Assembly (NCBI GenBank): GCA_050950765.1
Contig: JBMNIF010000002.1
Span: 224,001 to 288,000 of the forward strand
From: Bdellovibrionota bacterium
GTDB taxonomy: Bacteria > Bdellovibrionota_C > UBA2361 > JAAYZI01
Length of the DNA stretch: 64,000 nucleotides
Direction: 5' to 3'
A model generated the notes under the pieces. That model ran no database searches and was not told the origin of the DNA. It saw nothing but the letters and a program-made list of their open reading frames with translations. Made by a program: the position numbers and the translations under genes. Each line of letters starts with the position of its first letter. Positions within the stretch are counted from its first letter, which is position 1. Positions 12,525 to 60,945 of this stretch are shown piece after piece.

Positions 12525-12592
12525 TTTTATAAGCCTCCTCACCTCTTCGTATAACTTCTGTACACGAGCTCACACACAGAGAAGCGTTAGCC

Positions 12593-13967: not shown

Positions 13968-13993
13968 ACTACCTCACAAAAGTACACATCACC

Positions 13994-15074: not shown

Positions 15075-15100
15075 AACCCTCGTAACCTCTCGCTATCACA

Positions 15101-30695: not shown

Positions 30696-30725
30696 CCTCT
30701 TCCTCCCCTCCCCTCCGAGCTTTTT

Positions 30726-31735
30726 AGTGCCACCCTTCAGCTTTGCCGCTTTGACGGGCTTGGATCTGGTGCCACCCTTCAGCTAAAAGTGGGTGTCCTA
30801 ATTAGGATCTAATAATATCAAGACGTTAGCAAAAGCCTACATTTGGCGGTTTTGGTTTGGCGGTTTTGGTGCCACCCTTCAGTAAGACGGGATCTGACGG
30901 ATTTGGCTGGGGGTGGATCTGGTGCCACCCACTAGGGACAGTAGAACGGGCTTCCACTGCAAAGCGAATCGGTTAGGTTTGAATGAAGGTCAAAAACTAA
31001 TAATATCAAGACGTTAGCAAAAGCTTAGCATTTGGCGGTTTTGGTGCCACCCACCAGTCGGTTAGGTTTTCACGGAGGTTTGGCGGTTTTGGTGCCACCC
31101 TTCAGTAAGACCGGATCTGACGGATTTGGCTGGGGTTGGATCTGGTGCCACCCTTCAGTTACAGCAGGACGGGTACAACTGCAGAGCGAATCGGCTAGGT
31201 CTGGACGGAGGTTAGAAATTTGGTGCCACCCACCAGTAAGAAGACCCCTCCCCTTGTATAATTTCGGGGGAGTTTAGGTTTTAAAGCTTCGCTTTCGTGG
31301 TTGGTGGCGTTAATTTAGAGGGCTTAAAACCTTTTTAAAACGTCAAAGAACTAAAAATTTTATTTTTTTGGTTAAAACTTATATCAAATGTGTCAAGTTT
31401 GTTTTGCGAAAGCCTTTCTCCTGTGGCGGCGGTTTTGGTGCCACCCTTCAGCTAAAGGTGGGTGTCCTAATTGCTCTTCCACCCACTAGGGACAGCAGTA
31501 CAACAGCAGAGCGTATCGGCTAGGTCTGTATGGTCAAAAATTTGGTGCCACCCACCAGTGCTACAAGACTTTAAAATCAGGATAGCCAACAATATCAGGA
31601 CGTTAGTAAAAGCCAAGCATTTGGTGAATTTGGTGCTACCCACTAGGGACGATCGCCCACTAGGGACGATCGAACGGGTTAATACTAAAAAATGAATTAG
31701 CTAGGTTTTAACGGAGGTTAAAAATTTGGTGACTA
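30726..31735. repeat. Mosaic repeat array with GGTGCCACCC cores and recurring modules
   Basis: Nine exact GGTGCCACCC copies (30768, 30868, 30921, 31043, 31091, 31144, 31222, 31437, 31544) plus variants (30726, 31632), all on the same strand; intervening modules recur. Confidence 0.9.
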
Positions 31736-33708: not shown

Positions 33709-33756
33709 AAAAAGAGGGTATCAATAGAAACTTTTAAAATCTCTACTGATACCCTT
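33709..33756 (-). terminator. Intrinsic terminator downstream of the sigma factor gene
   Basis: Minus strand AGGGTATCAGTAGAGA...TTTCTATTGATACCCT (with G-U pairs) followed by CTTTT. Confidence 0.65.
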
Positions 33757-33787: not shown

Positions 33788-34663
33788 TTAAGCTGCTGCT
33801 TGTGCTTGAACGGCAGCAGATCTGGCAGCACGCACCTGTAAAATTTTTTGTGAGCGGGGTTTTCTACGATGAATCTGACGACATTCCAAGATATCACTAT
33901 CATCTTCACCCTCTAAAGGTTTGAAATTCTCTTGAAATATAAGACACATCTCGCGCTGCAATGTTTCTAAAGCTTTTCTTTTCACCCTTGAAATATGGCA
34001 TCGGCTATAACCGAGAGAAACCGCTATATCGATCAGCCTTCGTCCTTGAATGTAGAGTTGAAAAATTACTTCCTGCTCCAACTTATCTAACTTTTTACAA
34101 ACTGAAGTGCTGACCTTTACTAACTCTTTTTTTAATAAAATCTGATCTGGAGTTTCGTTTTCTTTACCGGAAAGTGACTCAACAGCATCAATGGCATCAA
34201 TGACACCTAATGCTCCTCCATATTTACTACTATTATAAAATCTCTCTTCTTCGTTATTTAAAATCGAAATAATATTTCCGTTAGCTGCACCAGAGATACT
34301 TCTTATCAAATTTCCTCGCAGATGATAGAAAAGAAAAGTTATAAAACAAGCTCCCTTAGCAGGATCGAAGCGTGAAACAGCTTCGCATAAAGATAGATCC
34401 ACCACACTATGAAGTTCATCATCATCTAATCTGGAATGCCATTTTTTAAGTATGCTACGCGCTAACTTACGTGCCTTTAAACGATACTCCAAAACCATTT
34501 TTTTGTTTTCGTGCGTTGTCCTTATTCCACAAAGTCCATTTAAAACAGCAACCTTTTTATTTGTCTTAGCCACACTACTTAAGCGCTCGGCATCAGCCAT
34601 TGTCATCTTCAACTTACAACTTTTGACTTCTGACATTACTTCCCCAACTTGCAGCACAACCAC
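33788..34663 (-). CDS. FliA/WhiG-like sigma-70 family sigma factor
   Basis: Region 2 LCEAVSRFDPAKGACFITFLFYHLRG; region 4 LDKLEQEVIFQLY..IDIAVSLGYSRCHISRVKRKAL. Confidence 0.85.
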   Translation of the reverse strand: MVVLQVGEVMSEVKSCKLKMTMADAERLSSVAKTNKKVAVLNGLCGIRTTHENKKMVLEYRLKARKLARSILKKWHSRLDDDELHSVVDLSLCEAVSRFDPAKGACFITFLFYHLRGNLIRSISGAANGNIISILNNEEERFYNSSKYGGALGVIDAIDAVESLSGKENETPDQILLKKELVKVSTSVCKKLDKLEQEVIFQLYIQGRRLIDIAVSLGYSRCHISRVKRKALETLQREMCLIFQENFKPLEGEDDSDILECRQIHRRKPRSQKILQVRAARSAAVQAQAAA

Positions 34664-34676
34664 TTAAAAACTATTT

Positions 34677-34958
34677 TTAATGATCTTCAAGCTGATAAGC
34701 TCTGATTACATCCTCAACGCCTGTCACAACATCAAGGCAATACGCTTGAATCATCAAACGTGAGTTTGATTCCATAATGCGATCACACTCTTGTAATATG
34801 GGCGCAATTTTACTGGCGATCTCTGCTCTTAAAATTTTAGCAATAGGATTCTTAACAGCAGAAGCTTCGGACCCAACAACTTCCAACTCTTCCATACGAC
34901 CCTCACAAAAAAAACCAAACACATCCTCTACTCTGTCAAAATAAAAAGTTCGCTTCAT
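34677..34958 (-). CDS. Hypothetical protein upstream of the sigma factor
   Basis: 93-aa ORF in operon position; no recognised family. Confidence 0.55.
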   Translation of the reverse strand: MKRTFYFDRVEDVFGFFCEGRMEELEVVGSEASAVKNPIAKILRAEIASKIAPILQECDRIMESNSRLMIQAYCLDVVTGVEDVIRAYQLEDH

Positions 34959-35095
34959 TATTTTTATAAATATTTGCTAACTACCTATAAATAGTTGTTA
35001 TTTTATTGATAATTTTTGCTCCTTTTTGAAGCGTTGTAACATCTACTTTAATTGTTACTAGAATTAGCCAGCTAAGGCTAAGAACAGGTTAGATT

Positions 35096-35890
35096 ATGGG
35101 AAAAGAAGAAGATACGCAGGAAACAGTCCTCTCCATTGAAGAGGCAAATGACTTAATCCTTGAACATCGTGGCTGGGCAGAGAGTATTGCTAAGTCTGTC
35201 GCCCGTTCTTGGAATCTGGATTGGCAGTTAGATGGATTGGATGGTGCTGCTATGGAGGCACTTATTTTTTGTGCACGTAGATTTGATCCTGCTCGGGGTG
35301 TGCCCTTTAAAGGTTATGCTAGAAAACGTATTCATGAAGCAGCGACAGAAGCCTCTCGTCGTTCAAAAGGTTGGCGACGCGGAGGAAATACTTCCGCTCG
35401 CACAGAACGTTTAGCGCGTGAGGTATCCGTAGAGCTCTTTAACATCTTCCCTGAGTTACATGCGGGGCTACTCCCCTATGCTGGAGATGAAGATGCAGAT
35501 CAAGATACTCGCATCGCCTTACAAAGATTATTGATAGGAGCTTCTGTTATCGCCACGAAACAAGGGATTGAAGCAGCCTTGCCGGATGATGCCCTTGATT
35601 TTAAACGCATGATAGAATCGATCTGTTCTATGGAGCCATTACATCAAACGTTAATCTGGAAAGTATATTGGGAAGGATTTTCATTGCGGAGTGTAGCTGG
35701 AGAGTGGGAAACTGATGAACTAAATGTTATCCGTGAACATAAAGTTATTCTGGATTATCTGCAGAAATTTTTTGGCAAGGGGCGGAATACAAAGTGTCCA
35801 AGGATAAGACCTGGATTAAGGGAGGTTGCGGTAAAATTAAAACGACAAGATAATATGGTAGATTTCAGCCAAATAATGACAAAGGAGTAA
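35096..35890 (+). CDS. Divergent FliA-like sigma-70 family protein
   Basis: Region 2 ARRFDPARGVPFKGYARKRIHEA; degenerate region 4 HQTLIWKVYWEGFSLRSVAGEW. Confidence 0.75.
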   Translation: MGKEEDTQETVLSIEEANDLILEHRGWAESIAKSVARSWNLDWQLDGLDGAAMEALIFCARRFDPARGVPFKGYARKRIHEAATEASRRSKGWRRGGNTSARTERLAREVSVELFNIFPELHAGLLPYAGDEDADQDTRIALQRLLIGASVIATKQGIEAALPDDALDFKRMIESICSMEPLHQTLIWKVYWEGFSLRSVAGEWETDELNVIREHKVILDYLQKFFGKGRNTKCPRIRPGLREVAVKLKRQDNMVDFSQIMTKE

Positions 35891-35896
35891 ACCACG

Positions 35897-36250
35897 ATGT
35901 CCAAGAACTCTAAAGATAAAAGCTCAAAAGTAACGGGAATCAAAGCCCCACGTGTCCCCACTGCCATTGAACAACTCAGTGGAGTTTCAAGTGTTGAAAA
36001 AACGCAGAAAACTTCTGCTATCTCTGCTGTTCACGGACTAAGTGGCACATCTAGAACACATTCTATAAACTCCATTACGGCTGCTAATCGAGAGGTGCTT
36101 CACAAAATGGTTCATGAAGAGGCTGATAAACTTTTCGGGAAGACTCAAACACCGAGTCAGAAACGTGAGGTTATTGAGAAAGCAGTTAAGATGGCGATTG
36201 ATGCAGTTGCTATCGAAGAGGAAAACGATTCTTCCTCCAAAAAGAGCTGA
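35897..36250 (+). CDS. Hypothetical protein (possible anti-sigma or T3SS substrate)
   Basis: AAGGAG RBS; coupled to the sigma gene; S/T/K-rich disordered N-half and helical C-half. Confidence 0.65.
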   Translation: MSKNSKDKSSKVTGIKAPRVPTAIEQLSGVSSVEKTQKTSAISAVHGLSGTSRTHSINSITAANREVLHKMVHEEADKLFGKTQTPSQKREVIEKAVKMAIDAVAIEEENDSSSKKS

Positions 36251-36323
36251 TATAATTTTAAAGCAACTTGAGATAGAGCTCTATCTTTAAGAGCAACGCC
36301 GTCGCTCTTGAACAAAGCACAAC

Positions 36324-36785
36324 TTATGCGCGCGACTGATAACGGGCTAGCTGCATCCGATGAAAACGGAGCGCATTAGGCGACTCGATGCTGCCACTCT
36401 CTATCTTATCACTTACCTCCCCCAGATAGGTACCAGCAGCGTTGTAGTCACCATTCGATAACAGACTAGCTACAAAGAAAAGAATAACTTCAATTGAATC
36501 AGGACTTAAACGATAGGCCTGATTTGCCGCTTGCAACGCTAAATCATTATTACCATTTTGCAAATATATACAGGTCAATCCCATCCAAGATGGAGCGAAA
36601 TCAGGCGCAACATTAACTAACCCTAACAAGATCGCTTCAGCACGATGCACATCTCCGTTCTCAAGACAGAACCTACCCAATTCGTAAATACTCACCACCT
36701 CCTGCGCTGAATATCCCCCTCGCTTTGTACAGTTTTGCAGATATTTTTCACGATAGATCTCTCTGGTATTACGTCTAAAGTTCAC
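36324..36785 (-). CDS. SycD/LcrH-like TPR chaperone
   Basis: GYSAQEVVSIYELGRFCLENGDVHRAEAILLGLVNVAPDFAPSWMGL fits the class II T3SS chaperone TPR pattern; likely GTG start overlapping the upstream stop. Confidence 0.7.
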   Translation of the reverse strand: MNFRRNTREIYREKYLQNCTKRGGYSAQEVVSIYELGRFCLENGDVHRAEAILLGLVNVAPDFAPSWMGLTCIYLQNGNNDLALQAANQAYRLSPDSIEVILFFVASLLSNGDYNAAGTYLGEVSDKIESGSIESPNALRFHRMQLARYQSRA

Positions 36786-37039
36786 TTTTTCCCCTCTATA
36801 CTGATAGACAACCAATCAAGCACATGCTTAAGCATCGCCTCTTCTGCTAATATTTTTCTGTAATCATCAGAATCAACGGCACCAGCGAAACCCTTCTTCA
36901 TCAGATTTACTTTTTCATACCGTGCAAACATAGAGTTCGACATCTGTTCAAGATCGCTGACAGAACCCAAAACAGGAAGAAGTGCAAGAAAGGGAGATAT
37001 CGAAAAGTTATCCGGCGCTGAATATTTTGATTTTTCCAT
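36782..37039 (-). CDS. Hypothetical protein in the T3SS-like locus
   Basis: 85-aa ORF translationally coupled to the TPR gene. Confidence 0.6.
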   Translation of the reverse strand: MEKSKYSAPDNFSISPFLALLPVLGSVSDLEQMSNSMFARYEKVNLMKKGFAGAVDSDDYRKILAEEAMLKHVLDWLSISIEGKK

Positions 37040-37145
37040 AACAACTACTTACATAAAGGTAGGACAAGCAAAGTTTATTTTAACAACCATTTTATATTTC
37101 TGCCAATCCTAAATAATATCTAAACAAACAGGATAAAATACGCGC

Positions 37146-37772
37146 CTACTCCATCTCTCGTTCCAACTCCTCTCTGGACATCCTATTTTTAAATAAAAAG
37201 AGATACTTTGCACCTAGTAAAGAAGCGCATACTAAACACAACGCTAAAGTAGCAAGAATAGGTAAAGCGCTTTGCATTAAATGGGACGGAATAAAAATTC
37301 CTGTTTCCGCTCGAGTAGTGAGCATCTTTTTTATAATGCCGACACCTACTAAAAAAACTCCGTATGTTACACCACAAAGGCACACGATTTCTAAACAATC
37401 TCTAATAAACAGCCGCAAAATCTCTGTTAAAGAAAATGTTTTTTCAAAAGGATTGACTCTCTGCATTGTCGGCACAATAAAGTTAAGGCGAAAAAGAAAC
37501 TTTACTTGAAACAATATAGACAATATTACAGAAAAAAATACTACTAACGCCGGAAATAACAATAATTCAACAAAAGTCCAAACCTTCTCTCTTGCAGCCG
37601 TTAAGGTGTTTGGAGGTGAAAATATCTGCATTAAATCTCCACGGATCCAAAAAAAATATCCGCACAGTGCCATAAAAATAAGGCAAGTAGTAGCAAAGTG
37701 AGAATAAGAAGTGATTCCACTTTCCCTTAAATTTTCAAGTTTTCTCTCTGTGGGCCATTCTTCTTTAAGCAT
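37146..37772 (-). CDS. SctU/FlhB-like export switch protein, membrane domain only
   Basis: EEWPTERKLENLRESG (T.kK...R.eG), QRVNP, ends RMSREELEREME (cf. KMS..E.K.E); no NPTH domain. Confidence 0.75.
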   Translation of the reverse strand: MLKEEWPTERKLENLRESGITSYSHFATTCLIFMALCGYFFWIRGDLMQIFSPPNTLTAAREKVWTFVELLLFPALVVFFSVILSILFQVKFLFRLNFIVPTMQRVNPFEKTFSLTEILRLFIRDCLEIVCLCGVTYGVFLVGVGIIKKMLTTRAETGIFIPSHLMQSALPILATLALCLVCASLLGAKYLFLFKNRMSREELEREME

Positions 37773-37784
37773 CTGCCACCTATT

Positions 37785-38408
37785 TTACTGATCGGACGTA
37801 ATATTTTTCTGCACAATTTCTGTAAAGCGTTCCGAATTCGGAGCTAAATTTTCTACAAAAAATGTTGCTATCGTATGGATAAACACCGTTAACAATAAAC
37901 AGACGAGTGTTGGACGCAACGCCGTAAAAGGTACAAACACTCGACTACGTAAAGCTCTACTAATCCACAAAAAAGGTAACTCAACTAACCAAAGCAAAAA
38001 GATAATACCTAAAGCCACAACAGATCCACACAAGCAAGCGCCATTTATTATTGCTATCAAGATTAACAATTGTTGTGGAAAAGTTGCAGCTGCTAAGGCT
38101 GCCTCTACAAAAGTAAGCGCCATATCGGAAGAAAACGCAAAATAGCAAGCACCACCAAAGATAACAGTGTGCAAGATCTGTTTATTACCGTTCTCCCAAG
38201 TAATATTATCTAAGAGAAGAGCGGTAACATAAGCAGAGAAAGGAACTGCTGCTAAAAATGTCATAAGTAATATGTAGCTACAAAGCGATAAGTCGATAGA
38301 CAATGCACTAAAAAAAACGCACCCTGCAAATACTATGGCTAACAGTCCGCTCCACCAACCTGAGCACATAATAGAGAATAATAAGAATATAGCAGCACAA
38401 AATATCAT
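37785..38408 (-). CDS. Highly diverged SctT/FliR-like membrane protein
   Basis: Multi-TM; ELPFLWISRA..FTALRP resembles the FliR/SctT C-terminal motif; located between sctS-like and sctU-like genes. Confidence 0.55.
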   Translation of the reverse strand: MIFCAAIFLLFSIMCSGWWSGLLAIVFAGCVFFSALSIDLSLCSYILLMTFLAAVPFSAYVTALLLDNITWENGNKQILHTVIFGGACYFAFSSDMALTFVEAALAAATFPQQLLILIAIINGACLCGSVVALGIIFLLWLVELPFLWISRALRSRVFVPFTALRPTLVCLLLTVFIHTIATFFVENLAPNSERFTEIVQKNITSDQ

Positions 38409-38422
38409 TACTTAAACACTTT

Positions 38423-38662
38423 TTAACTCAAGCTCTTTGTCGCCAAATCCATAATCCAACTTACAACAGGGCTACACAAAAAATATAAGATTACCAAAAC
38501 AGTGATAAGTCGTAGTGCATAACTCGCACTTTGCTCTTGAACACTCGTGGCTGCCATTAAGGTTGAGGCGATAGTACCAACTAAAAGAACACCGATTATT
38601 AACGGGAAATTTATTAAGAAAAGTATCCTCAAAGCTTCCTGAATCAATTCATGAACTTCCAT
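38423..38662 (-). CDS. SctS/FliQ-like export gate protein
   Basis: EALRILFLINFP..VGTIASTLMAATSVQEQSASYALRL. Confidence 0.82.
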   Translation of the reverse strand: MEVHELIQEALRILFLINFPLIIGVLLVGTIASTLMAATSVQEQSASYALRLITVLVILYFLCSPVVSWIMDLATKSLS

Positions 38663-38677
38663 AAGCCCCTCTTTCGT

Positions 38678-39313
38678 TTAGAGATAACCTGAGATTAATT
38701 TTTCTGAAAGTAACTGCCAACCATCAATGGCAAAAAAGAGTAAGACTTTCAGAGGTAGCGCCACAAAGTTATGTTGTATATTGGTAGCCCCTAACAGCAA
38801 CAAAACATTAGCCACAATCAGATCAAGCACAAAGAAAGGGATTAGTAACAAGAAACCGATCTTAAAAGCTTCTTTTACTTCTGTAAAAAGATAACTCGTC
38901 ACTAGGACAGCAAAGGTAGTATCAGAAGTAAGGGTTACCTCTGCTGTTCCTCCGCTTTGATCTGTAACCTCCGAGCCTTTTACGCCCTTTAATTTTTTTG
39001 CCAACTCGGTAAAACGTTCTAACGTTTTTGGCTCCGTATACTTTGTAAGAATTGGAGAGTATTTCTGATCCATTTCTGAAATACTTTTTAAAGGGGTAGT
39101 AAACAACTTCTCCAAACCACCAACGCCTTCAAGTTGCGGCGCAAGGATCATCATAGAGAGAGCAAAAGAGATAATGACCAATACTAACCCCACTCCGCTA
39201 CCATAAAACCCCAAGCCATAACGTAAAATGCTAAATGTCGTTACGCACTTGACGAAGGCACTAAAAAAGAAGATGACGATGATAGCTATAAGATACGGTT
39301 GTAGTGTTTCCAT
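38678..39313 (-). CDS. SctR/FliP-like export gate protein
   Basis: SAFVKC..ILRYGLG; TEVKEAFKIGFLLLIPFFVLDLIVAN; ALPLKVLLFFAIDGW; no signal peptide, as in injectisome SctR. Confidence 0.88.
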   Translation of the reverse strand: METLQPYLIAIIVIFFFSAFVKCVTTFSILRYGLGFYGSGVGLVLVIISFALSMMILAPQLEGVGGLEKLFTTPLKSISEMDQKYSPILTKYTEPKTLERFTELAKKLKGVKGSEVTDQSGGTAEVTLTSDTTFAVLVTSYLFTEVKEAFKIGFLLLIPFFVLDLIVANVLLLLGATNIQHNFVALPLKVLLFFAIDGWQLLSEKLISGYL

Positions 39314-39445
39314 GAAATGGGATTATAGAAAAGATGATCCTAGTTTGACCAGTCCTAATATCGACACTCTTCAACAATAAAAATGCACCTAATTATGTTT
39401 TAATATACCTGACAACGAAGCAGGCTCCTGCTTCATATTAGAACT

Positions 39446-40474
39446 TTAACAGACGCTAATAACTAAGCTCCCTTGATAGGAGCGTAAAATAGCCTCTCCC
39501 ACTTTTTCGTTATTAACCACAATGGAAACCTTATCACTAACACGGATATTCGTATCAAAGGATGCTCCAACCTGTGCGACTTCAGCAGTCATCCCCGGTA
39601 CAAGTTGTGTTATACCGAATTCAAACGAAAGTTTCGTAGCACCTGCAGGTATTTTAACGGACGGAGGTGTTGTCGCCACAGTTTCTACTACAAAATTATT
39701 ATTAACGATCCCTAAGCGTGCTGGTAACCACGCCTTGTCATTAGCAATTAACGTTACGGAATCAGAAACTGGTATCTCAATATCATAAAAGACACCCGAC
39801 TTTAAGTATTCAGATAACATGGCAGGTGGTACAGTCAGATGCCCCACCTCTACTCTAACATTTGTTGGAGCAATTTTCGTCCCGATAGTTGAATGCAGCT
39901 GCCTACGCCACAATCCATCCATTTTCTCGAGCATAATCTTGCCCATCGTGATCCAGATAGTGATAGGTGTGCCGTTTACGTTTAACTGTAATTTAACGCC
40001 TCCGATCCCCCTGACAGAATGCGGATCTATATCGGATTCGAACTTGACAAGAGAAGACTCCGGCCCCGTCCATGATAACGCCAAACTTGAGATAAGGCGC
40101 ATCGCCAAATACTCCAAAACAACCTCCCTTGCTTTATTGCGAGCTCCAAGGATGATCATTTCAAGTAATGCCACAGCTGAATCATCTTCTAAAAAAACAC
40201 ACATCGGTTCATCATCGATCGATCCAGTAAAACCGTATTGAAAATTATGATTGCCACCGATAAAAGGTTTTGTCTCGACTAGAGAAAACTCCACTCCTAG
40301 TGAATGCGCTAATGGCTGCCACTGCATAGCAAAACCTGGAAACCATTTTTCTGGAGAACACCGCAAAAAACCGCAGGAATAACGCACCTCCAACGGATCA
40401 TATCTCCGCAGCAGCTTATTCGGCTTCCATGGATTCAATTTAACTTGATTATTACCCTGCGCACTATCTTGCAA
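39446..40474 (-). CDS. SctQ-like C-ring/sorting platform protein with two SpoA-like domains
   Basis: TNVRVEVGHLTV..LKSG and KLSFEFGITQL..VGASF..VSIVVNNEKVGEA SpoA-like repeats; lies before sctR. Confidence 0.7.
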   Translation of the reverse strand: MQDSAQGNNQVKLNPWKPNKLLRRYDPLEVRYSCGFLRCSPEKWFPGFAMQWQPLAHSLGVEFSLVETKPFIGGNHNFQYGFTGSIDDEPMCVFLEDDSAVALLEMIILGARNKAREVVLEYLAMRLISSLALSWTGPESSLVKFESDIDPHSVRGIGGVKLQLNVNGTPITIWITMGKIMLEKMDGLWRRQLHSTIGTKIAPTNVRVEVGHLTVPPAMLSEYLKSGVFYDIEIPVSDSVTLIANDKAWLPARLGIVNNNFVVETVATTPPSVKIPAGATKLSFEFGITQLVPGMTAEVAQVGASFDTNIRVSDKVSIVVNNEKVGEAILRSYQGSLVISVC

Positions 40475-40491
40475 TTTTTAAATCCCTTTTA

Positions 40492-40722
40492 CTATTCTAG
40501 CTCACTAAGAGCTGCCCTTAACGCCGTCCCGATAAAAACCATTCGCAATTCTGGCGACTGCGCCGCCAGATCCAAAGCCGCTTTTTGTAAAACTTCACCA
40601 TTAACAGTATCGCTTTTTAAATAAACCGCCGCCTCACGTCCGTCCAGCAAAACAGCCACAGCAACTAAAGCACGTTGTTTAGCTGGCAAAGCCCTGAACC
40701 GTTTTGCATCCGTATAATCCAT
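40492..40722 (-). CDS. Small SctK/FliG-fragment-like protein
   Basis: Directly after sctJ (the SctK position); LPAKQRALVAVAVLLDGREAAVYLK resembles the FliG LS..KAAILL..LG.E.AA..LK repeat. Confidence 0.45.
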   Translation of the reverse strand: MDYTDAKRFRALPAKQRALVAVAVLLDGREAAVYLKSDTVNGEVLQKAALDLAAQSPELRMVFIGTALRAALSELE

Positions 40723-40737
40723 AGGATAAATCCTTTA

Positions 40738-41577
40738 CTAAACGACACTTTTCAGATCTGATTCATTTGAGTCAATATCATTACCATTTTTCTTGCGTAC
40801 ACTATATCTAAAATTAGCAAGTAGATAACCCAAAGTAGCACAAATAAATCCACTTAATAAAACTGCCGCAAAAAAGGTCATTATTAAACCGTATTGATCC
40901 CCCTCTACAACGTTCCAAAAGAGTAAGGAAACTAGAGGCACCTTTACGATCTCTCCGTTTTTAAGAGTAACTCCATTTACCAAAACTTCCGTCTCTTCTT
41001 GTACGGTCGAGATAACTTTTACTTTTTCCAGCGGGATATTCGGAAGAACCAGCTGCACGAGTTGCTCAATATCTTCCTGACTAAGAGCATCTTCTTTGCG
41101 CAACCGAACAATGATGGCAGCACCCTCTGAATCTGCCATCACAGACCTCTGTCTGACTATGGCTTTAGCCGAAATCACACCGGCATGGTTACTGAACAGA
41201 TCCTCAATCTGCACAGCCAGTGCTCTATCTGCACGCAGAGCTTCGATCTCTTTCGAATTCGAAGAAAGAAACCCACCTTGAGAAGAGAGGTATTTTAAAG
41301 AGGGATCCTCTTCTTCCGGCAAACCGTTATTATCCAAGATCTGTACAGCTTCTAAATATTTATTATGCTTAACCAAAACATGATAACCGTCAGACGATTT
41401 TCGTCCGCTCTTTTCAGCCGTAGCAGGGATGCCTTGAGCGCTCAAGACTGCAATGATTCTATTCGCCTGTTTATGCGAAAGCCCTTCGCCTGTAACTGAA
41501 ACCTCATTACAGGCGCAGAGGAAGAACGCCATCAACGGCAATAGAATATAGCGTACAGAATTTAATTTCATTATCAT
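40738..41577 (-). CDS. SctJ/YscJ-like inner-membrane ring lipoprotein
   Basis: Lipobox FLCAC then GLSHKQANRIIAVLSAQGIPA..EAVQILDNNGLP; GVISAKA; C-terminal TM. Confidence 0.88.
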   Translation of the reverse strand: MIMKLNSVRYILLPLMAFFLCACNEVSVTGEGLSHKQANRIIAVLSAQGIPATAEKSGRKSSDGYHVLVKHNKYLEAVQILDNNGLPEEEDPSLKYLSSQGGFLSSNSKEIEALRADRALAVQIEDLFSNHAGVISAKAIVRQRSVMADSEGAAIIVRLRKEDALSQEDIEQLVQLVLPNIPLEKVKVISTVQEETEVLVNGVTLKNGEIVKVPLVSLLFWNVVEGDQYGLIMTFFAAVLLSGFICATLGYLLANFRYSVRKKNGNDIDSNESDLKSVV

Positions 41578-41587
41578 AAACCCGCTT

Positions 41588-43003
41588 TTACTTTTCACCT
41601 ACATAAGGGATAAGTGTTACAAGAAATTCGACATCACCAAAGCGTACCCAGTCGCCATTTTCCAAAATGACGAGCTCCTCTTCTTTCTGATACGTATTCT
41701 CTCCACGTCGTCTGACGAAAATACCCCTATCACTCATCAGATCGTGCAATCTTAAGCCGTCTTCCGTACTAACCATCACCATGGCGTGCGGTGTAGAGAT
41801 GCTTTCATCCTCAAGGATTAAATCCGTACCTTTCAAGCTGGTACGCGTAATAAAAAACTTCCCTTCGCGTAGCTCGATCCCCTCTCCCGACGGAGTATTA
41901 TAACTGACAAACCAACCAAACAATCTACCCTTTTTAGAAGGTGCACGTTGCGGTGTCTGATCTTTTTTCTGAAATGGAGCATTCTGCTTCCTATCTTTAC
42001 CTTGTTGTGAAACGTTTTTCTGTTGTTTCTCTCTTCTTTCAAAACGTTTCTTTTCTTCACTTTCATTTTCTTCATACCTAGCAACGCTCTCTTTTTCAGA
42101 AGCACCTGACCTGCCTTCCTTTCTTGACTGTTGTTCAGATCTTTGTTGCTTATCAGGATTTGAGCTCCTATTATCTCTACGTCGTCTAGCTGAACGGGAC
42201 GTTCTCTCTGGCGTTTGTTGAACCTCTGCCGCTATCTCAGGAATTTCAAATTCAACATCTTCCACAACGCTTTCTTGAGACGACACTACATCTTCAATCT
42301 CTTCAGAGCTATCATCCCCAAGATCTTCAACAGTGACCTCTTCCTCTTCTTCTCCAACATTAAAATCGAAAGGTCCTACAAGCCCCCCTTCTACTTCATT
42401 AACTTCATAATTCACCACTTCTTCAGCACTATCATCCTCAACGGCAGACGCGGTTTCTACAAAACCACTTTCAGGATCTGATCTTACCTCAGAGACAACT
42501 CCACCGTAATCAAATCTGGTTTCAACATCTTCCACCTCTCTCGGTTCAAAATCAGCATATCCTTCGGGTTCTTTTGACTCTTCCTCTTGAGCGCCTGCAA
42601 ATTGAGGTGTTTCATCTTCAGCACCTATCGCTACGATACTATCATCTTCCATCTCCCCTTCTGAATCATCAGGGATTTCAACCTCCAGCTCTTCAATATA
42701 AGCACTAAGGGGATCATCCAACTGCATGGGGTCATCATTACTTACATCAGCCACCTGCTGAGTAGCACTGGCCACTTCATCTTCTCTGATTCGATCTCTG
42801 GTTTGTTCTAATTCTGCATCTCCCGCTGTGGACATCGTACGTTGTCGCACCCTAGCGGAAGGTTTCTGCGCAGGCTCCTCCGGTCGTTCGGAAGCAGAAT
42901 CTAAACTCGCTCCGCACATCCGACAACGAGTTGAGACTGCCGGTATTAAACTTCGACAAGATGGACATCTCACAAAGGTCAACTCATTATTATCTGTAGC
43001 CAT
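41588..43003 (-). CDS. Zn-ribbon + acidic linker + FHA domain protein
   Basis: CPSC..CRMC N-terminus; long D/E-rich region; C-terminal FHA-like DESISTPHA..DLMSDRGIFV..DWVRFG. Confidence 0.8.
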   Translation of the reverse strand: MATDNNELTFVRCPSCRSLIPAVSTRCRMCGASLDSASERPEEPAQKPSARVRQRTMSTAGDAELEQTRDRIREDEVASATQQVADVSNDDPMQLDDPLSAYIEELEVEIPDDSEGEMEDDSIVAIGAEDETPQFAGAQEEESKEPEGYADFEPREVEDVETRFDYGGVVSEVRSDPESGFVETASAVEDDSAEEVVNYEVNEVEGGLVGPFDFNVGEEEEEVTVEDLGDDSSEEIEDVVSSQESVVEDVEFEIPEIAAEVQQTPERTSRSARRRRDNRSSNPDKQQRSEQQSRKEGRSGASEKESVARYEENESEEKKRFERREKQQKNVSQQGKDRKQNAPFQKKDQTPQRAPSKKGRLFGWFVSYNTPSGEGIELREGKFFITRTSLKGTDLILEDESISTPHAMVMVSTEDGLRLHDLMSDRGIFVRRRGENTYQKEEELVILENGDWVRFGDVEFLVTLIPYVGEK

Positions 43004-43042
43004 AATATCACTCCCTTTTTACTCAAAAAAAAACATACTTAT

Positions 43043-44434
43043 TTAAAATATTGCTCCACATAAAATAAACAATAAGAATATTAACAACGCATTGAGCAGT
43101 ATCATTATAAAAATGAACAACGCTTTTTTCGGCAGCGACAAAGCATTAAAGTACCGCTCCAAATCTTCTATTTTAACGAACCCTCTACCCGTGTTAAGCA
43201 TACTTTCCACCGTGTTTCTTGATACACGCGCACGTTGCATTTGTGGTGGTTGCAGAGAAGTCTCTTCCATAAAGCTTTCTGTTAATCCAACCTGCTTCTT
43301 TGTTTTTTCGACCTTAACTTCATTTTCTACAAAAGCATCTGCCGAACCGTTAGCATTCTTAAACTTCTCTTCCTGTTCTTTATTAAAACAGATCGCCACC
43401 GTTAAATTACCACCGAAGTTTAAAACTTTGGCTTCACCATCAAGCTCTAAAGTATGACCTTTCTTTAAGATACCGCCGTCATAAACGGTTCCGTTAGTGC
43501 TGGAATCTTCGACTGTCGTTATACCTGTCTGACTAAGAGAAACTGTACAGTGCCGCCTTGAAACGTGCGGAGCTCCTAACCACAGATCGCTACTAGGCTC
43601 TCTACCGATAGTGACACTTCCATCAACCGGCAAAACCAAACGTGCTGGTCTAGCCACCTCAGACATCGATAATAAGATCGGGTACCTTTGCAACGATTGT
43701 TGCGGAGCAACTTTTTCCACTTCCTTGTTGATGATTTTTTCCAAACCATCTTGAGAAACTACACCGTATATCGAAGTTTGCCCCCCTAAAAAGATAGGTA
43801 CATTTGGTTCTACATTAACACGCCCTGAGATCTGTTGATTGTGTACAAAAGTTCCGTTTGTTGAACCGAGATCTTCGATCCAAAACCTTCCTTCTTCAAA
43901 ACCTATACGTGCATGCTTGCCCGAGATATCCGCACCATCAAGTCGTACCGCACATTTATTAGAGCGCCCAATATAAGCTGGTTGATCTGGTGAAAAAGAA
44001 ACGACTATCGGAGAGGCTCCTGCTACAACAACAGCTGGGAACTCCGGAGTATCTAAAGCACAAGCCTGCCGCAATATCCGCACTCCAGCACGGTCTGGTG
44101 GTTCTCCTGCTTTTACCGCTAAGTCGGGATCCAATGAAGTCACTGTTAATTGCAGATTAGCAAGTTTTAATGAAGTAGATCCGTTAATCGCTCCATGCGG
44201 TATTTCAGGGATAGCGTTGATGTCGTTTGAATTTACCTTATCTAGCGTTTCAAGCTTGCAACGAAACTTTCTTCCGACACACTTCGTCAAACGGAGTTGA
44301 TAATTAAGATCTTTCATATCTTCTATATCAACGTGTGCTTCTTCAGAAGCACCGATCAAGGCTTGTGGACGACGCACAAGTATCATCATGGTTTGGGATA
44401 AGCCATCTTGAAAAGCTATTTCAAGAGCGAACAT
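43043..44434 (-). CDS. Multi-FHA membrane-anchored protein (SctD cytoplasmic-domain-like)
   Basis: IGRS..ISGKHARI..DLGSTNGTFV and IGRE..VSRRHC..SSTNGT; ends in a single TM. Confidence 0.85.
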   Translation of the reverse strand: MFALEIAFQDGLSQTMMILVRRPQALIGASEEAHVDIEDMKDLNYQLRLTKCVGRKFRCKLETLDKVNSNDINAIPEIPHGAINGSTSLKLANLQLTVTSLDPDLAVKAGEPPDRAGVRILRQACALDTPEFPAVVVAGASPIVVSFSPDQPAYIGRSNKCAVRLDGADISGKHARIGFEEGRFWIEDLGSTNGTFVHNQQISGRVNVEPNVPIFLGGQTSIYGVVSQDGLEKIINKEVEKVAPQQSLQRYPILLSMSEVARPARLVLPVDGSVTIGREPSSDLWLGAPHVSRRHCTVSLSQTGITTVEDSSTNGTVYDGGILKKGHTLELDGEAKVLNFGGNLTVAICFNKEQEEKFKNANGSADAFVENEVKVEKTKKQVGLTESFMEETSLQPPQMQRARVSRNTVESMLNTGRGFVKIEDLERYFNALSLPKKALFIFIMILLNALLIFLLFILCGAIF

Positions 44435-44892: not shown

Positions 44893-45258
44893 ATGGACAC
44901 ACCAGCAACTATCTTGATTGTCGACGATGATGTAACAGCACTCGACATTGTTGATTACCTCTTTGAAGATAAAGGCTTTGAAGTAGTACGCAGAGCCGAT
45001 GGTCAATCTGCTATTGATTGTGTTGAAGAGATCAATCCGAATATCATTTTAGTGGATCTTATGATGCCGCGCCTAAGTGGTCAGGAAACTGTCCGGCAGA
45101 TGCGTGCTAAAGGTATTACCGTTCCTGTTGTGGCATTTACTGCCATAGATAATCCGGAGATTCATCAGGAGGCACTTGATGCAGGTTGCAATCTGGTGTT
45201 AACAAAACCGTGTCGTCCTAATATCTTAGTGAAACACATCGAAGATCTGTTACAATAA
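44893..45258 (+). CDS. Single-domain response regulator
   Basis: ILIVDDD, VDLMMP, AFTA, LTKP. Confidence 0.92.
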   Translation: MDTPATILIVDDDVTALDIVDYLFEDKGFEVVRRADGQSAIDCVEEINPNIILVDLMMPRLSGQETVRQMRAKGITVPVVAFTAIDNPEIHQEALDAGCNLVLTKPCRPNILVKHIEDLLQ

Positions 45259-56204: not shown

Positions 56205-56645
56205 TTAAAAGTTCAACTTATTGTAAGCACTCCTTTGAGTCGTCATCTCATCAATCGCTTTTAGCTCCTCTTTATTAAGATAATCAGCATATTCCGCTTT
56301 GCGCTTTTCTTTAAGAGTTGCCAACGTTTCCTCGTCCTTTGCGGCTTCAATATAAGCATCTTCAGCTTTTGCAACCGCTTCCTGCGATCTCTCTATCTCT
56401 TCCTTTTGATGCTCAATATCTTCTTTTAGACGCTCTCCATAAGCACCTAAGAGATGAATTTCTTCTGCCGTAATTTGGATATTATCCTCAATAGTGTTGA
56501 GTAGAGCTGCCATCTCCAACTCTTTCAGATGCTCCATCTCTCCAAAAAGCTTATTTCTACTTAAGATCAACTCTTTAGTTTTCTCATCCTTAAGAAGTTT
56601 TCTATACTGCAAAACTCGCTCAAGCCTGAATTGAAATTTCTTCAT
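56205..56645 (-). CDS. fliJ: Flagellar export chaperone FliJ
   Basis: KFQFRLERVLQYRK..LKEKR..EELKAIDE; follows fliI. Confidence 0.9.
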   Translation of the reverse strand: MKKFQFRLERVLQYRKLLKDEKTKELILSRNKLFGEMEHLKELEMAALLNTIEDNIQITAEEIHLLGAYGERLKEDIEHQKEEIERSQEAVAKAEDAYIEAAKDEETLATLKEKRKAEYADYLNKEELKAIDEMTTQRSAYNKLNF

Positions 56646-56680
56646 AAAACCTCACTTCTGTTAAAAACCTTAGAACAACG

Positions 56681-58024
56681 CTACTCTCCTTCCTCTTTTA
56701 CGCTTTCCTCTTTAACGCCTTCCTCCAAAATCTTTGCTAATAACTCCCACGATTCCTTAATACCAAACCTCTCACCTGGTTTCTGCTTTAAAAATTCAAT
56801 TAACTTATCATTTAACGATACAGCTAAATCCACCTTCGGGTTTTGACCTCTTTTATAAGCTCCGATCGTTATAAGATCTTCATTGTCTCTATAAGTAGCT
56901 AGCAGATCTCGTGCCAAAGCTGCCAAATCTAAGACTCCATTCGGCACTATTTCTGACATAACACGAGAAACAGAATCTAAGACACTGATGGCGGGGAACT
57001 GACCTTTCGCTGCCAACTTTCGATCGAGGATAATATGTCCATCTAAGATACCACGAACGGCATCTGCGATCGGTTCATTCATATCATCGCCTTCAACCAA
57101 AACCGTATAAAGCCCTGTAATTGAGCCTTTTTCTGCAGTTCCTGCTCTTTCCAAGACTTTAGGCAACATTGCAAAAACTGATGGGGTATAACCACGTGTA
57201 CTAGGTGGTTCTCCGATTGCTAATCCAACTTCACGTTGAGCCATAGCTAAACGGGTAATAGAATCAATCATTAAGACAACCTGCTTACCTTGATCTCTAA
57301 AATATTCAGCGATAGTCGTAGCTAAAAAAGCTGCTCTAATGCGCATTAAAGCTGATTCATTACCTGTTGCGACAACCACAACGGATCGTTTTAATCCTTC
57401 TGGTCCCAGATCACGCTCGATAAACTCTCTAACCTCCCTACCACGTTCACCAACCAACCCGATTACGTTAATGTCACTGGTTGAATGTTTAGCAAACATA
57501 CCAAGCAAGGTACTTTTTCCAACACCGGAACCTGACATAATACCGACACGTTGCCCCTTGCCTACTGTCAAAATAGTGTTAATCGCTTTGACACCTAGAT
57601 CAAACGGCTCTTTGATACGTGTTCTTGTAATAGGATTTGGCGGATCTCGATAAAGTGGAACTAAAGTTCCGACCTCATCAAGTGTTGAGCCGTCAATCGG
57701 GTTGCCCATAGCATCAATCACCTTTCCGCACAAACTATCTAAAACCACCACATCAGAGCTGTCTCCCGTAGCAGTAATTATAGCTCCTGAAGCTAGACCT
57801 TGCGGCTCGGCATAAGGCATCAATAAAACCTTATCTTGACGAAACCCCACTACTTGCGCCTGAATAATATGTCCTCCGGAACGAATTGAAACTTGTGAAC
57901 CTACGGAAACAAACGGCCCCGTTCCTTCAATAACCAAACCTGTTACATCCGAAACCTTTCCGCGCAACTCATAATTACTAGCGAGTTTCATGGCGGCATT
58001 GGCTTCTGTTAATAAACTACCCAT
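56681..58024 (-). CDS. fliI: Flagellar export ATPase FliI
   Basis: GSGVGKST, GLVGERGREVREF, DSITRLAMAQRE, GYTPSVF, LDGHIIL. Confidence 0.96.
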   Translation of the reverse strand: MGSLLTEANAAMKLASNYELRGKVSDVTGLVIEGTGPFVSVGSQVSIRSGGHIIQAQVVGFRQDKVLLMPYAEPQGLASGAIITATGDSSDVVVLDSLCGKVIDAMGNPIDGSTLDEVGTLVPLYRDPPNPITRTRIKEPFDLGVKAINTILTVGKGQRVGIMSGSGVGKSTLLGMFAKHSTSDINVIGLVGERGREVREFIERDLGPEGLKRSVVVVATGNESALMRIRAAFLATTIAEYFRDQGKQVVLMIDSITRLAMAQREVGLAIGEPPSTRGYTPSVFAMLPKVLERAGTAEKGSITGLYTVLVEGDDMNEPIADAVRGILDGHIILDRKLAAKGQFPAISVLDSVSRVMSEIVPNGVLDLAALARDLLATYRDNEDLITIGAYKRGQNPKVDLAVSLNDKLIEFLKQKPGERFGIKESWELLAKILEEGVKEESVKEEGE

Positions 58025-58035
58025 CTTTAGAATCT

Positions 58036-58872
58036 CTATTTTGCTATTTTTAAAACTTTATCTTGAACTCGTTCCCAAGCGAGATCTAACTGATAATCGA
58101 TCTCCCCTGCTGAGGTCTCCACAATACAACCAGCTTTAATCGTTGGATCGGCCACAAATTGCCAGTTTTCTTGAAATCCCTTAACTGAATTGCCGACTCC
58201 AACAAGGTTGATAAATTCAAAATCCTGAGGACTAACTCGAATAGTTTTTACTTCTGCCGTTCCTCCCAATGCCACCGCTTTATTGATAATATCAACGATG
58301 TATTCGGGGTTAATTTCAACAGCATCATCAATAATTTTCTTTGAGATAGCGAGCGCTAGGTCAAGAGTTTGCCTCTCGATAGTTTTTAGATTTTCTTCTA
58401 TCTGTTTTTGAATATCAGAGAAAACTTCCTGCATTTTCTGTTTATAGATCTCATCCTGCTCCTGCAACTTTGCATTCATTTCAGCAGAAGCTACGGCATA
58501 ACCTTCATCATATGCCTCTTTTTTAACACCTTCTAACTCTGCTTCAGTTAAGGTTGTTGTCACTATTTCAGGTTCTTTACTCTTTTCTTCTTCGTCGTGT
58601 TTTTGATACGCCAACTCCTTTGGTAAATGCCAACGCACTTTTGATTCTATTGGAGGGAGACCACCGAAGTCTTCAAACATCGGATCCACTATTCCCTCAG
58701 ACCCTGCGACAACATCAAACTGAGTCGGCAAAAAATCTTCCGACAAATGCACTTCTCCGATCACTGGCCAAGAAGCATCTTGATACTCCGTCGGTTGATA
58801 GGTCGTTTGAGTAAGACTAAGATCCACTAAGTCTTCTTGTTCCTGTATTTGCTCTGATTCTTGATGATCCAC
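58036..58872 (-). CDS. fliH: Flagellar assembly protein FliH
   Basis: EAYDEGY, LALAISKKII, IRVSPQD, DPTIKAGCIVETSAGEID. Confidence 0.88.
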   Translation of the reverse strand: MDHQESEQIQEQEDLVDLSLTQTTYQPTEYQDASWPVIGEVHLSEDFLPTQFDVVAGSEGIVDPMFEDFGGLPPIESKVRWHLPKELAYQKHDEEEKSKEPEIVTTTLTEAELEGVKKEAYDEGYAVASAEMNAKLQEQDEIYKQKMQEVFSDIQKQIEENLKTIERQTLDLALAISKKIIDDAVEINPEYIVDIINKAVALGGTAEVKTIRVSPQDFEFINLVGVGNSVKGFQENWQFVADPTIKAGCIVETSAGEIDYQLDLAWERVQDKVLKIAK

Positions 58873-58928
58873 GTAATGTTCTCCGATTAGATATTTCGTT
58901 TCAAAAGCAGATCTTTACTTACAAAAAT

Positions 58929-60581: not shown

Positions 60582-60609
60582 CTAAAACTCCCTACAAAAC
60601 CTAAAAAAG

Positions 60610-60930
60610 CTAAATCTGTGTTCTAATGATCTCTTGATACGCATTGATAATTTTCTGCTGCAAATTAGTCATGAACTGAAAAGTCACATCAGCTTTTTCA
60701 AGAGCTATCATAGCATCATGAATATTAGCGCCCTCTTTTTTAGTCATAACGTTTTCTATCTGCTGATCAGCGTCGAGTTGTAATCTATTAACATCGTTTA
60801 AAACCTGTGCTAGTACATCGCCGAAAGATGAACCGCTTTTATCAACACTACCTTGCACACCTTGTTGCTGTAACGGTTGAGAGATCGGCTTAATTGCTTC
60901 AAGTCCAAATTGTATCCCTTCAATACTCAT
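60610..60930 (-). CDS. fliE: Flagellar hook-basal body protein FliE
   Basis: SFGDVL..VNRLQ..IHDAMIALEKA..KIINAYQEIIRTQI. Confidence 0.95.
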   Translation of the reverse strand: MSIEGIQFGLEAIKPISQPLQQQGVQGSVDKSGSSFGDVLAQVLNDVNRLQLDADQQIENVMTKKEGANIHDAMIALEKADVTFQFMTNLQQKIINAYQEIIRTQI

Positions 60931-60945
60931 CGTTCTCTAATCTCC

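Follow-up and report, generated by a model that had tools for sequence, protein, structure and literature searches.

The 64,000-nucleotide stretch of DNA analysed here (the window) belongs to a genome, G000, of 2.64 Mb in 5 contigs and 94% completeness, and contains a co-oriented run of genes for a type III export apparatus. Gene content, gene order and phylogeny indicate that this system is non-flagellar and reduced, forms a lineage of its own and has genetic ties to a Tad-like machine and to a module for Ser/Thr phospho-signalling. The open reading frame (ORF) list and family scans give, on the minus strand from 44434 to 36324, the order FHA463, ZnFHA471, J286, K76, Q342, R211, S79, T207, U208, o85 and TPR163, beyond which the plus strand carries o117 and sig264 and the minus strand o93 and sig291 (Table 1). 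An initial annotation, made from the letters of the window, had named this run and two sigma genes beside it, and the ORF listing places all of these ORFs where it had put them.

None of the type III proteins encoded here comes near the equivalog cut-offs of NCBIfam, and they can be assigned at the family level only, with the R, U and J proteins leaning slightly towards the non-flagellar models. Profile searches with FHA463 recovered the Pfam FHA domain (E 1.3e-29, two FHA stretches) and Yop-YscD_cpl (E 3.3e-14), and the protein is 31-53% identical to its counterparts in 12 relatives' loci. Its transmembrane segment lies at the extreme C-terminus and there is no periplasmic domain, a layout also seen in 12/12 orthologue ORFs (11 distinct, with the relative G002 read from two overlapping loci). 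Because FHA463 is tail-anchored without a periplasmic part, the SctD position is held by a protein unable to build a periplasmic ring. A match to the type VI secretion FHA protein TagH (63.8 bits) is weak and below cut-off. In ZnFHA471 the Pfam FHA domain is found at residues 392-456 (E 1.1e-5), and the ends of the protein are conserved among relatives while its middle is variable. The first annotation had read these two proteins as FHA-FHA-transmembrane and zinc-ribbon/acidic/FHA, and the FHA matches, the C-terminal transmembrane segment and the CxxC...CxxC motif with its acidic tract bear it out. J286 matches YscJ_FliF of Pfam (E 2e-10) and reaches 76.9 bits with the SctJ model of NCBIfam against a cut-off of 161.95; the lipobox noticed at the outset is present, together with a C-terminal transmembrane segment, in J286 and 13/13 orthologue ORFs (12 distinct, with G002 again read twice).

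Among the presumed platform proteins, Q342 matches FliMN_C (E 2.6e-6), and its model (predicted local distance difference test, pLDDT, 84.7) displays a FliM-like middle domain and the two SpoA domains that had been proposed for it. Besides the FliM(SpoA)::FliN structure 4yxc (E 5e-8) and the middle domain of FliM in 7dm9 (E 2.8e-4), Foldseek searches with this model recovered whole FliM in the solved C rings of 8wiw, matched across about 294 columns (E 1e-6). K76 is one of the best-conserved proteins of the locus (31-67% identity, mostly 51-67%) and is modelled as four helices with a pLDDT of 92, with no family recovered in Pfam or NCBIfam. Of its earlier description as a small SctK/FliG-like protein, the size stands and the family is not claimed: the hints at FliG are weak (the best Foldseek match, with E 4.4, is FliG_N in 5tdy; the VIA-wide Z does not exceed 4.2; the FliG_M and FliG_N rows of the Atlas stay below the bar), and a PF14842 (FliG_N) search of the genome at E up to 10 gave a single match, which is the true FliG at C1:5218 and not K76.

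The gate subunits are recognizable to different degrees. R211 matches the FliP profile (E 4.3e-32) from residue 10 onwards, whereas the match in the flagellar FliP of the window starts at residue 58, in keeping with the signal-less SctR of the initial annotation; its NCBIfam scores are 106.7-108.6 bits for SctR versus 94.6 for FliP, all below the cut-offs. S79 matches Bac_export_3 with E 3.1e-11. U208 matches Bac_export_2 (E 1e-18) over profile positions 3-219 of 335 only, and ends about 10 residues past a conserved HRM(S/T)RxE motif behind the fourth transmembrane segment. As 10/10 orthologues stop likewise, the loss of the autocleaving cytoplasmic switch domain is old and fixed rather than a break in this genome. 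T207 has orthologues in 5 relatives, and recovered no match in Pfam, NCBIfam or PDB profiles. The proposal of SctR, SctS, SctT and SctU thus holds by Pfam for the first two, and for the transmembrane domain alone in SctU, the SctT name of T207 being positional only. Behind the gate genes, o85 has 16 orthologues (30-53% identity) and no family in Pfam or NCBIfam or relevant PDB-profile match, its Atlas matches being helical look-alikes only; it is a candidate chaperoned substrate or co-chaperone. TPR163 matches TPR_19 (E 3.1e-9) and falls below the NCBIfam chaperone cut-offs (SctY 29 bits versus 70; LcrH_SycD 19.4 versus 104.8), and the SycD/LcrH identity first given to it was not upheld.

Table 1. 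Genes and other features of the type III-like locus and its borders (positions in whole-window numbering)
Feature	Position	Strand	Description
FHA463	43043..44434	-	Tail-anchored cytoplasmic protein, 2 or more FHA domains; SctD position, without the ring-building part
ZnFHA471	41588..43003	-	N-terminal zinc-ribbon-like CxxC...CxxC, acidic then basic low-complexity tract, C-terminal FHA
J286	40738..41598	-	SctJ-type inner-membrane ring lipoprotein; C-terminal transmembrane segment, short cytoplasmic tail
K76	40492..40722	-	Small four-helix protein; no family, weak FliG-like hints
Q342	39446..40474	-	FliM/SctQ-like sorting-platform protein; CheC/FliM-like middle domain and two SpoA
R211	38678..39313	-	SctR/FliP-family export-gate subunit; lacks the N-terminal extension seen in flagellar FliP
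S79	38423..38662	-	SctS/FliQ-family export-gate subunit; Bac_export_3, two transmembrane segments
T207	37785..38408	-	Polytopic membrane protein, about 5 transmembrane segments, in the SctT/FliR slot
U208	37146..37772	-	SctU/FlhB transmembrane domain only
o85	36782..37039	-	Conserved 85-aa helical protein; 34-nt overlap with the TPR gene
TPR163	36324..36815	-	TPR protein; candidate class II/SctY-like chaperone
o117	35897..36250	+	117 aa, half-disordered; starts 6 nt after sig264
sig264	35096..35890	+	Sigma-70-family factor, distantly FliA/WhiG-like
o93	34677..34958	-	Small ORF directly upstream of sig291; weakly conserved
sig291	33788..34663	-	Second sigma-70-family factor; divergent to sig264
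Terminator-like hairpin	33715..33755	-	19-bp stem and T run; closes the sig291 unit
Single-domain response regulator	44893..45258	+	Divergent to FHA463; Pfam Response_reg, E 3.3e-25

Both sigma factors match the Sigma70 r2/r4 regions just below the Pfam cut-offs (sig264, Sigma70_r2 23.1 bits; sig291, r2 and r4 about 21.5 bits). The best-conserved gene of the set is sig264 (55-63% identity), which scores 27.4 bits with the NCBIfam FliA_WhiG model against a cut-off of 189.6. sig291, 41-55% identical in 10 relatives, is over the cut-off of TIGR02937 (51.8 bits versus 42.9) and below those of FliA_WhiG (48.8) and SigBFG (51.8). Of the two small ORFs, o93 has no Pfam family and BLAST orthologues in 3 loci only (tblastn matches in 3/16), and o117 gave no family, no FlgM match and no relevant PDB-profile match. 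Complex prediction for sig264 and o117 yielded a median ipSAE of 0.73, the best of 3 controls being 0.00; in a rough benchmark, to be read with the reservation that custom alignments were used here, that score was reached by 116/157 solved complexes and 2/215 mismatched pairs. The prediction runs share at least 72% of contacts with a partner pLDDT of at least 54, and place residues 58-104 of o117, its helical C-terminal half, against sig264 at residues 99-171 and 223-227; the N-terminal half of o117 is predicted as unstructured. The model supports, short of showing, a FlgM/sigma-28-like binding of o117 to sig264.

Homologues of R211 occur in 41/41 genomes of the order, and in 21/40 relatives they are found at E <1e-30; gene neighbourhoods were compared, as the initial annotation had called for, in 16 loci fetched around these R211 orthologues. 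The FHA/J/K/Q block lies upstream of R on the same stretch in 12/16 loci, the TPR163 gene stands behind the gate genes in 16/16, o85 has a tblastn match in 15/16 (in L055 by blastp only), and the sigma cassette adjoins the gate locus in 10/16. The locus is split between Q and R in 4/16 relatives, three further loci carry insertions of 0.8 to 5.6 kb there, and the Q-R spacer of the window (39314-39445), the largest gap in the run, is a recurrent breakpoint. The response-regulator gene adjoins the FHA463 orthologue in 9/16 relatives' loci and is uncertain as a member of the system. The sig264 family is single-copy in 113/124 genomes of the lineage and in 71/73 of the high-quality ones. A collection scan with the sig264 alignment gave 100 matching loci, and the 80 that were kept are all records of metagenome-assembled genomes, mostly labelled Bdellovibrionota, Bdellovibrionales, Deltaproteobacteria or Oligoflexia. 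Across this uncultured lineage of 124 species, most public records of which bear the label Bdellovibrionota, the gene set is nearly universal.

Contigs X11 and X12, from a landfill run and a wastewater run, contain a second strain that differs by about 1.2%, at 139 places. Among the 40 of these differences that were listed, 33 fall in coding sequence (29 synonymous, 4 non-synonymous) and 7 between genes, for a crude ratio of non-synonymous to synonymous polymorphism (pN/pS) of about 0.04 if 22% of sites are taken as synonymous. Both 1-bp indels between the strains are intergenic and no frame is broken; one 1-bp deletion and four substitutions of the second strain fall in the Q-R spacer. On the sequence comparisons, the genes of the gate are real and old, and purifying selection acts on them. 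A single contig joint in X7 (35760 to 43709) was disregarded, as one of its sides is just 20 letters long. No RNA dataset was listed for the locus, X19 being probably DNA.

The phylogenies of the gate subunits bear on whether the locus is flagellar. An IQ-TREE (LG+G4) analysis of 34 SctR sequences united the R211 clade with an ultrafast bootstrap of 100, joined it to the SctR of a sister-order genome (G051) with 99 and separated this group from all others with 97, and thus from flagellar FliP, from four reference SctR and from the other SctR of the genome. The SctV of the system, V700, lies on another contig (see below). A FastTree (LG) analysis of 164 FHIPEP sequences comprised 150 best representatives to V700, four reference SctV, the Escherichia coli FlhA and three paralogues from G000. 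In it the V700 clade and a sister-order clade form a group with support 1.0 (70/164 sequences), which stands apart from the SctV clade of Aeromonas, Shigella, Pantoea and Sinorhizobium (41 sequences, support 1.0), from the flagellar clade with the E. coli FlhA and the flagellar FlhA of G000, and from the clade of V622, a paralogue described below. The V700 clade and its sister clade fall below both the SctV and the FlhA cut-offs of NCBIfam, while other unnamed clades pass one or the other. As judged from these trees, SctR and SctV of the window system form their own deep, non-flagellar clades, and the own diverged lineage suspected by the initial annotation is borne out.

A recent, decaying duplicate of flagellar export genes might be considered, given that flagellar fliPQR, fliMN and fliFHIJ lie in the same window and that several members of the locus score below family cut-offs. 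The proteins do not nest within flagellar clades, R211 and V700 failing to group with the flagellar copies of the genome, and orthologues at E <1e-30 in 21/40 relatives, 29/33 synonymous coding differences and intact frames speak against decay or patchy presence; such an origin is hardly credible. The flagellar genes, correctly recognized from the start, are fliR/P/N/M with motAB at 10108-15883 and flgC-fliE-F-H-I-J at 56205-61383, and score much higher on flagellar models (e.g. FliP, 236 bits, over cut-off). There is no fliG between fliF and fliH in this flagellar cluster (58036-60581), and the only FliG_N match of the genome, at G000:C1:5218-5769, is on another contig, about 11 kb upstream of a type III cluster.

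The locus had been taken for a second export apparatus; it is in fact a third. G000 holds three FHIPEP, three FliP-family and three YscJ_FliF genes, four FliMN_C matches and, for FlhB, one full gene, two transmembrane-only genes and two stand-alone C-domains. The second non-flagellar set is scattered over three places. A cluster on contig C1 (G000:C1:16253-21918) comprises sigma227 (FliA/WhiG-like, 86 bits), J268, a 75-aa ORF, Q304, a 96-aa ORF, V622 (a short FHIPEP protein with a diverged cytoplasmic domain), TPR180 and a 98-aa ORF, with an FHA protein and two more sigma factors near it; in layout, and not in sequence, this cluster parallels the window locus. A cluster on C5 comprises a SctI-like gene, a 300-aa ORF, a FliO-like gene, R216, S88, T246 and U290, and one on C3 a SctL-like gene and SctN (C3:100899). 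As J286 and R211 are only remotely like their counterparts in this set (23% identity to J268, 31% to R216), the window locus is counted as a third export set. The sctU of the C5 cluster is itself split (G000:C5:49845-54215, minus strand), with a 290-aa ORF covering FlhB profile positions 2-256 and a 94-aa ORF covering 262-333, between which sits a 1074-aa GAF/GAF/HATPase ORF; the split is presumably near the family's autocleavage (NPTH) site.

These two non-flagellar sets look complementary, in that the window has R, S, T and U without V or an ATPase and C1 has V without R, S, T and U, and in the relative G039 a window-type R-S-T-U block adjoins a C1-type cluster. It might hence be proposed that the window locus and the C1, C5 and C3 genes are pieces of one dispersed Myxo-type system. 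Against this, R, S, U, V, J and Q each occur twice beyond the flagellar copy, the paralogues are very distant by the identities given above, the genome G040 has the window type without the other type, and sister orders place the V700-type SctV and the window genes in one array. We consider a single dispersed system highly improbable.

The missing SctV was found at G000:C3:603815-605914. V700 matches FHIPEP with E 5e-178 and scores 591 bits with the NCBIfam SctV model against a cut-off of 692. It is the last-but-one gene of a Tad-like operon, ahead of PK814, a kinase-like protein of 814 aa. The Tad/Cpa components recovered in this operon by Pfam are TadZ/CpaE (AAA_31/CbiA), two RcpC, TadA (T2SSE) and TadB/TadC (T2SSF, twice); no FHA domain was found in TadA528 at E up to 0.01. 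Nearly all of the 40 relatives have three FHIPEP types, and the V700 type always follows tadC directly, with TadA-TadB-TadC-V700-PK814 contiguous in 10/10 loci of the order. Upstream of TadA, where the contig reaches, these loci carry o135 (FHA), a Ser/Thr kinase, TadZ and RcpC, and in G000 and G051 a PP2C phosphatase and a further FHA gene head the array. In G002 genes orthologous to FHA463, ZnFHA471, J, K, Q and R follow the Tad-V700-PK814 array directly, on the same strand. Outside the order, V700 has its nearest relatives in other orders of the same class, and in these sister orders Tad-like genes, SctV and PK814 form one array in 5/5 loci, which continues into FHA463, ZnFHA, J, K and Q in 4/4 loci that reach beyond PK814 and in G051 goes on through R, a shortened U and two sigma genes. 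Besides flagellar-type copies, G040 has only the R211 type and the V700 type. V700 is assigned to the window system because of the contiguity in G002 and the sister orders and of the gene content of G040, and the contiguous Tad-plus-gate array is, on this comparison of gene orders, likely to be the older state. The initial suggestion that the system might be split across loci was thus borne out, that of borrowing the flagellar FlhA was not, a deep-branching SctV of its own being present. That annotation had not anticipated the link to Tad genes, the phospho-signalling genes at the head of the array or the conserved absence of a cytoplasmic domain in SctU.

The sigma cassette lends itself to another explanation, namely an autonomous inner-membrane export or checkpoint device that controls the two sigma factors by exporting their partners in the manner of FlgM, with the Tad genes as mere neighbours. 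The cassette is nearly universal and adjacent in 10/16 loci, the sig264-o117 model passes, and the Tad-SctV array is not adjacent in most genomes of the order. However, SctV, an essential gate part, always directly follows tadC (10/10 and 5/5 loci), and the contiguity in sister orders is hard to ascribe to chance, so that independence from the Tad genes seems rather unlikely.

Flp-like pilin genes and TadE-domain genes sit elsewhere in G000, away from the Tad-SctV operon. Two pairs of TadE genes, at G000:C2:389376-390088 and C2:558740-559465, each place a small protein (201- or 229-aa frame) beside a giant one (1739- or 1563-aa frame), and both giant proteins carry an N-terminal TadE domain. 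By their likeness to what is described for the Myxococcus Kil pilus (PMC12075869), these pairs may be counterparts of its "Tips".

Genome-wide searches for sctV, sctN and sctC, proposed at the outset, returned V700 as the SctV, SctN on C3 beside SctL, and as secretins (PF00263) two proteins only: GspD in a type II secretion operon (GspC-D-E-F-G) and PilQ after pilM-N-O of a type IVa pilus. The type III ATPases of G000 are likewise two, FliI and the SctN next to the SctL-like gene; family scans found none in the window locus or in the Tad-SctV array, and SctI had no match among the ORFs of the locus in Pfam or NCBIfam. Three relatives, G021, G032 and G040 (97%, 94% and 82% complete), all carry the window-type system and have no FliI/YscN-family protein over the cut-off of 379.5, their best matches of 217-245 bits being F-type-subunit-like as in G000. 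Stand-alone FlhB C-domains are also absent from these three genomes, and such a domain was rejected as a replacement SctU switch, not being consistently present with the system. As both are lacking there, the gate would work without a type III ATPase and a SctU switch domain, at least in these genomes. These searches revealed neither a secretin nor a needle, rod or dedicated ATPase for the window system, as the initial annotation had held for the secretin, needle and ATPase. The near-complete G021 and G032 have no flagellar-type FlhA, yet each has two non-flagellar FHIPEP and two FliP-family genes.

Sigma-70-type promoter matches were not above shuffles (21 versus a shuffle mean of 25.4), and Rfam and tRNA scans of the window gave no match. 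A region of about 1 kb at 30696-31732 has a raised G+C (0.44), no ORF above 81 aa, no tRNA and no Rfam match. The gene of a 1049-aa VIT/DUF2135 protein (6834-9983) and, at 62378-63999, a MoxR AAA ATPase gene with a DUF58/VWA gene behind it are ordinary-looking neighbours.

These contextual associations invite comparison with known type III systems. With the flagellum the window set shares a gate of the FliP/Q/FlhB/FlhA family, a FliM-like platform protein and a sigma factor with a small, half-disordered predicted partner; it differs in having no rod, hook, filament, FliF-type membrane/supramembrane ring, FliG or FliI/H/J of its own, and its sigma factors score 27-49 bits where the flagellar FliA cut-off is 189.6. 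Flagellar export is possible without the ATPase. Like the injectisomes (Ysc, Mxi-Spa, Rhizobiales) it has SctJ as a lipoprotein and an SctR that lacks the signal extension, places an FHA protein where SctD would be, and encodes a TPR protein beside a small ORF, as in ascX-ascY-ascV of Aeromonas. It lacks SctC, SctN/L/O, SctF, SctI, a translocon, the C-terminal domain of SctU and the periplasmic domain of SctD, and branches outside the reference clade. Of the injectisome core defined by Abby and Rocha (2012), SctJ, SctQ, SctR, SctS and SctV are present; a secretin SctC, an SctN of its own and a full-length SctU with the autocleaving (NPTH) cytoplasmic domain are not, U208 lacking the latter, and the SctT slot holds the polytopic T207 with no profile match.

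The Myxo-type non-flagellar type III secretion system, as characterized in that study, is secretin-less, basal, conserved and vertically inherited, and was argued not to be a contact-dependent injector; its loci keep the ATPase, SctJ and the inner rod SctI, the long form also SctD, and occur in Cystobacterineae only (PMC3459982). By this description the window set shares the secretin-less state and has none of the ATPase, inner rod and SctD that the Myxo type keeps; the description fits the other set of the genome (C1/C5/C3, with SctL/N and a SctI-like ORF) better.

The closest known case is the Kil and T3SS* pair of Myxococcus, with which a needle-less type III base and an FHA-rich Tad-like machine are shared. 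The needleless type III secretion system T3SS* of Myxococcus xanthus (mxan_2434-2464) is a basal apparatus without secretin, needle and translocon, and Kil is a Tad-like, FHA-rich machine recruited with T3SS*, both being needed for prey killing and lysis (PMC12075869, PMC8460266, PMC12428579). According to a 2025 review, co-occurrence of the two appears restricted to Cystobacterineae. Kil and T3SS* are encoded at separate loci, whereas here SctV lies inside the Tad-like operon and a single array is formed in sister orders; T3SS* has SctN, whereas the window set has no type III ATPase of its own; and KilF carries an FHA domain, whereas TadA here has none detectable. T3SS* is likened to the window set by its published description. 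A more distant likeness is that to the control of type VI secretion (PpkA/PppA/Fha1), where a kinase, a PP2C phosphatase and FHA proteins are similarly encoded with an envelope machine; the machine is a different one. Seef et al. draw the same parallel for Kil. Literature searches, which did not extend to supplements, returned no description of a Tad operon that includes a gene for a type III gate, or of type III systems in this lineage.

With moderate confidence, we interpret the window locus as the type III-derived half of a larger, ancestrally contiguous set, a Kil/T3SS*-like device coupled to Tad. The full set would read PP2C phosphatase, FHA proteins and Ser/Thr kinase, then TadZ, RcpC, the TadA ATPase, TadB and TadC, then SctV and the 814-aa kinase-like protein, then the window genes. 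SctR, SctS, the T-slot protein, SctU and SctV, inside an SctJ ring and with a Q342/K76 platform, would build an inner-membrane export gate that runs on the proton-motive force instead of a type III ATPase; the FHA proteins might read threonine phosphorylation and so switch this gate on. Gate and Tad-like machine could act jointly in functions that involve contact between cells, like the Kil and T3SS* pair of Myxococcus. As there is neither a switch domain nor a needle, a single small class of substrates may be exported, into the periplasm or onto the pilus, with o85 as candidate substrate and TPR163 as its possible chaperone. In a manner reminiscent of FlgM and sigma-28, o117 would keep sig264 inactive until exported or displaced, tying transcription to the activity of the gate; export of o117 through the gate is proposed by analogy. 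The best reading for the system is a role other than injection.

The losses just described could alternatively be taken to mean that type III parts now serve as a scaffold in the membrane or a platform for signalling and secrete nothing, similar to the hat-shaped inner-membrane structure that is linked to flagellar type III proteins (PMC9380563). ATPase, switch domain, rod, needle and secretin are lost, FHA, kinase and phosphatase genes abound, and T207 is not recognizably SctT. Yet the channel-forming SctR, SctS, SctU transmembrane domain and SctV are kept under purifying selection, and the pair of TPR protein and small protein resembles a chaperone with its substrate, which makes a purely structural role appear quite unlikely.

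Several observations weigh against the proposed Tad-coupled export device. Gene order is the sole link between Tad and gate, and the two halves are separated in 9/10 loci of this order; R-S-T-U-o85-TPR is detached from J-K-Q in 4/16 loci (L041, L043, L050, L051), and in G039 the window-type R-S-T-U adjoins the J-Q-V cluster of the other system. Homology of T207 to SctT went undetected, hhalign giving a probability of 0.1 against both the flagellar FliR and the other SctT of the genome, and its name is positional. G000 has no third secretin gene (PF00263) that could serve the Tad machine, so that a pilus would have no evident route across the outer membrane. The sequences of the FHIPEP tree were chosen as best matches of V700 and its rooting is arbitrary, and the SctV and SctR trees cover four reference systems, with no Myxococcus or Chlamydia sequences. 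The o117 model has low partner confidence, its score may reflect likeness to solved sigma/anti-sigma pairs, and it is silent on export. Predation in this lineage is suggested by analogy alone.

A bolder version of the coupling, which we advance tentatively and hold to be possible without being probable, is that the Tad motor and the gate form one hybrid envelope machine, the PilB/CpaF-class ATPase and the TadB/C platform replacing SctN/L/O, or that the gate loads cargo onto the Tad pilus; threonine phosphorylation would trigger assembly and anti-sigma export would reset transcription. If true, this would be a secretion apparatus of an undescribed kind, possibly the ancestral state of the Myxococcus partnership between Kil and T3SS*, whose genes lie apart.

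Two forms of type III secretion are known, the flagellum and the injectisome, together with the poorly understood needle-less system of Myxococcus, and the present lineage keeps a third, more reduced form in almost every genome. Its gene arrangement provides a genetic argument, one that does not draw on Myxococcus, for Tad-like pili and needle-less type III gates acting together as a unit, and suggests that such a gate can dispense with the canonical ATPase and the switch domain. The cargo of needle-less type III systems, their source of energy and the nature of early non-flagellar systems before the gain of a secretin may thereby become testable.

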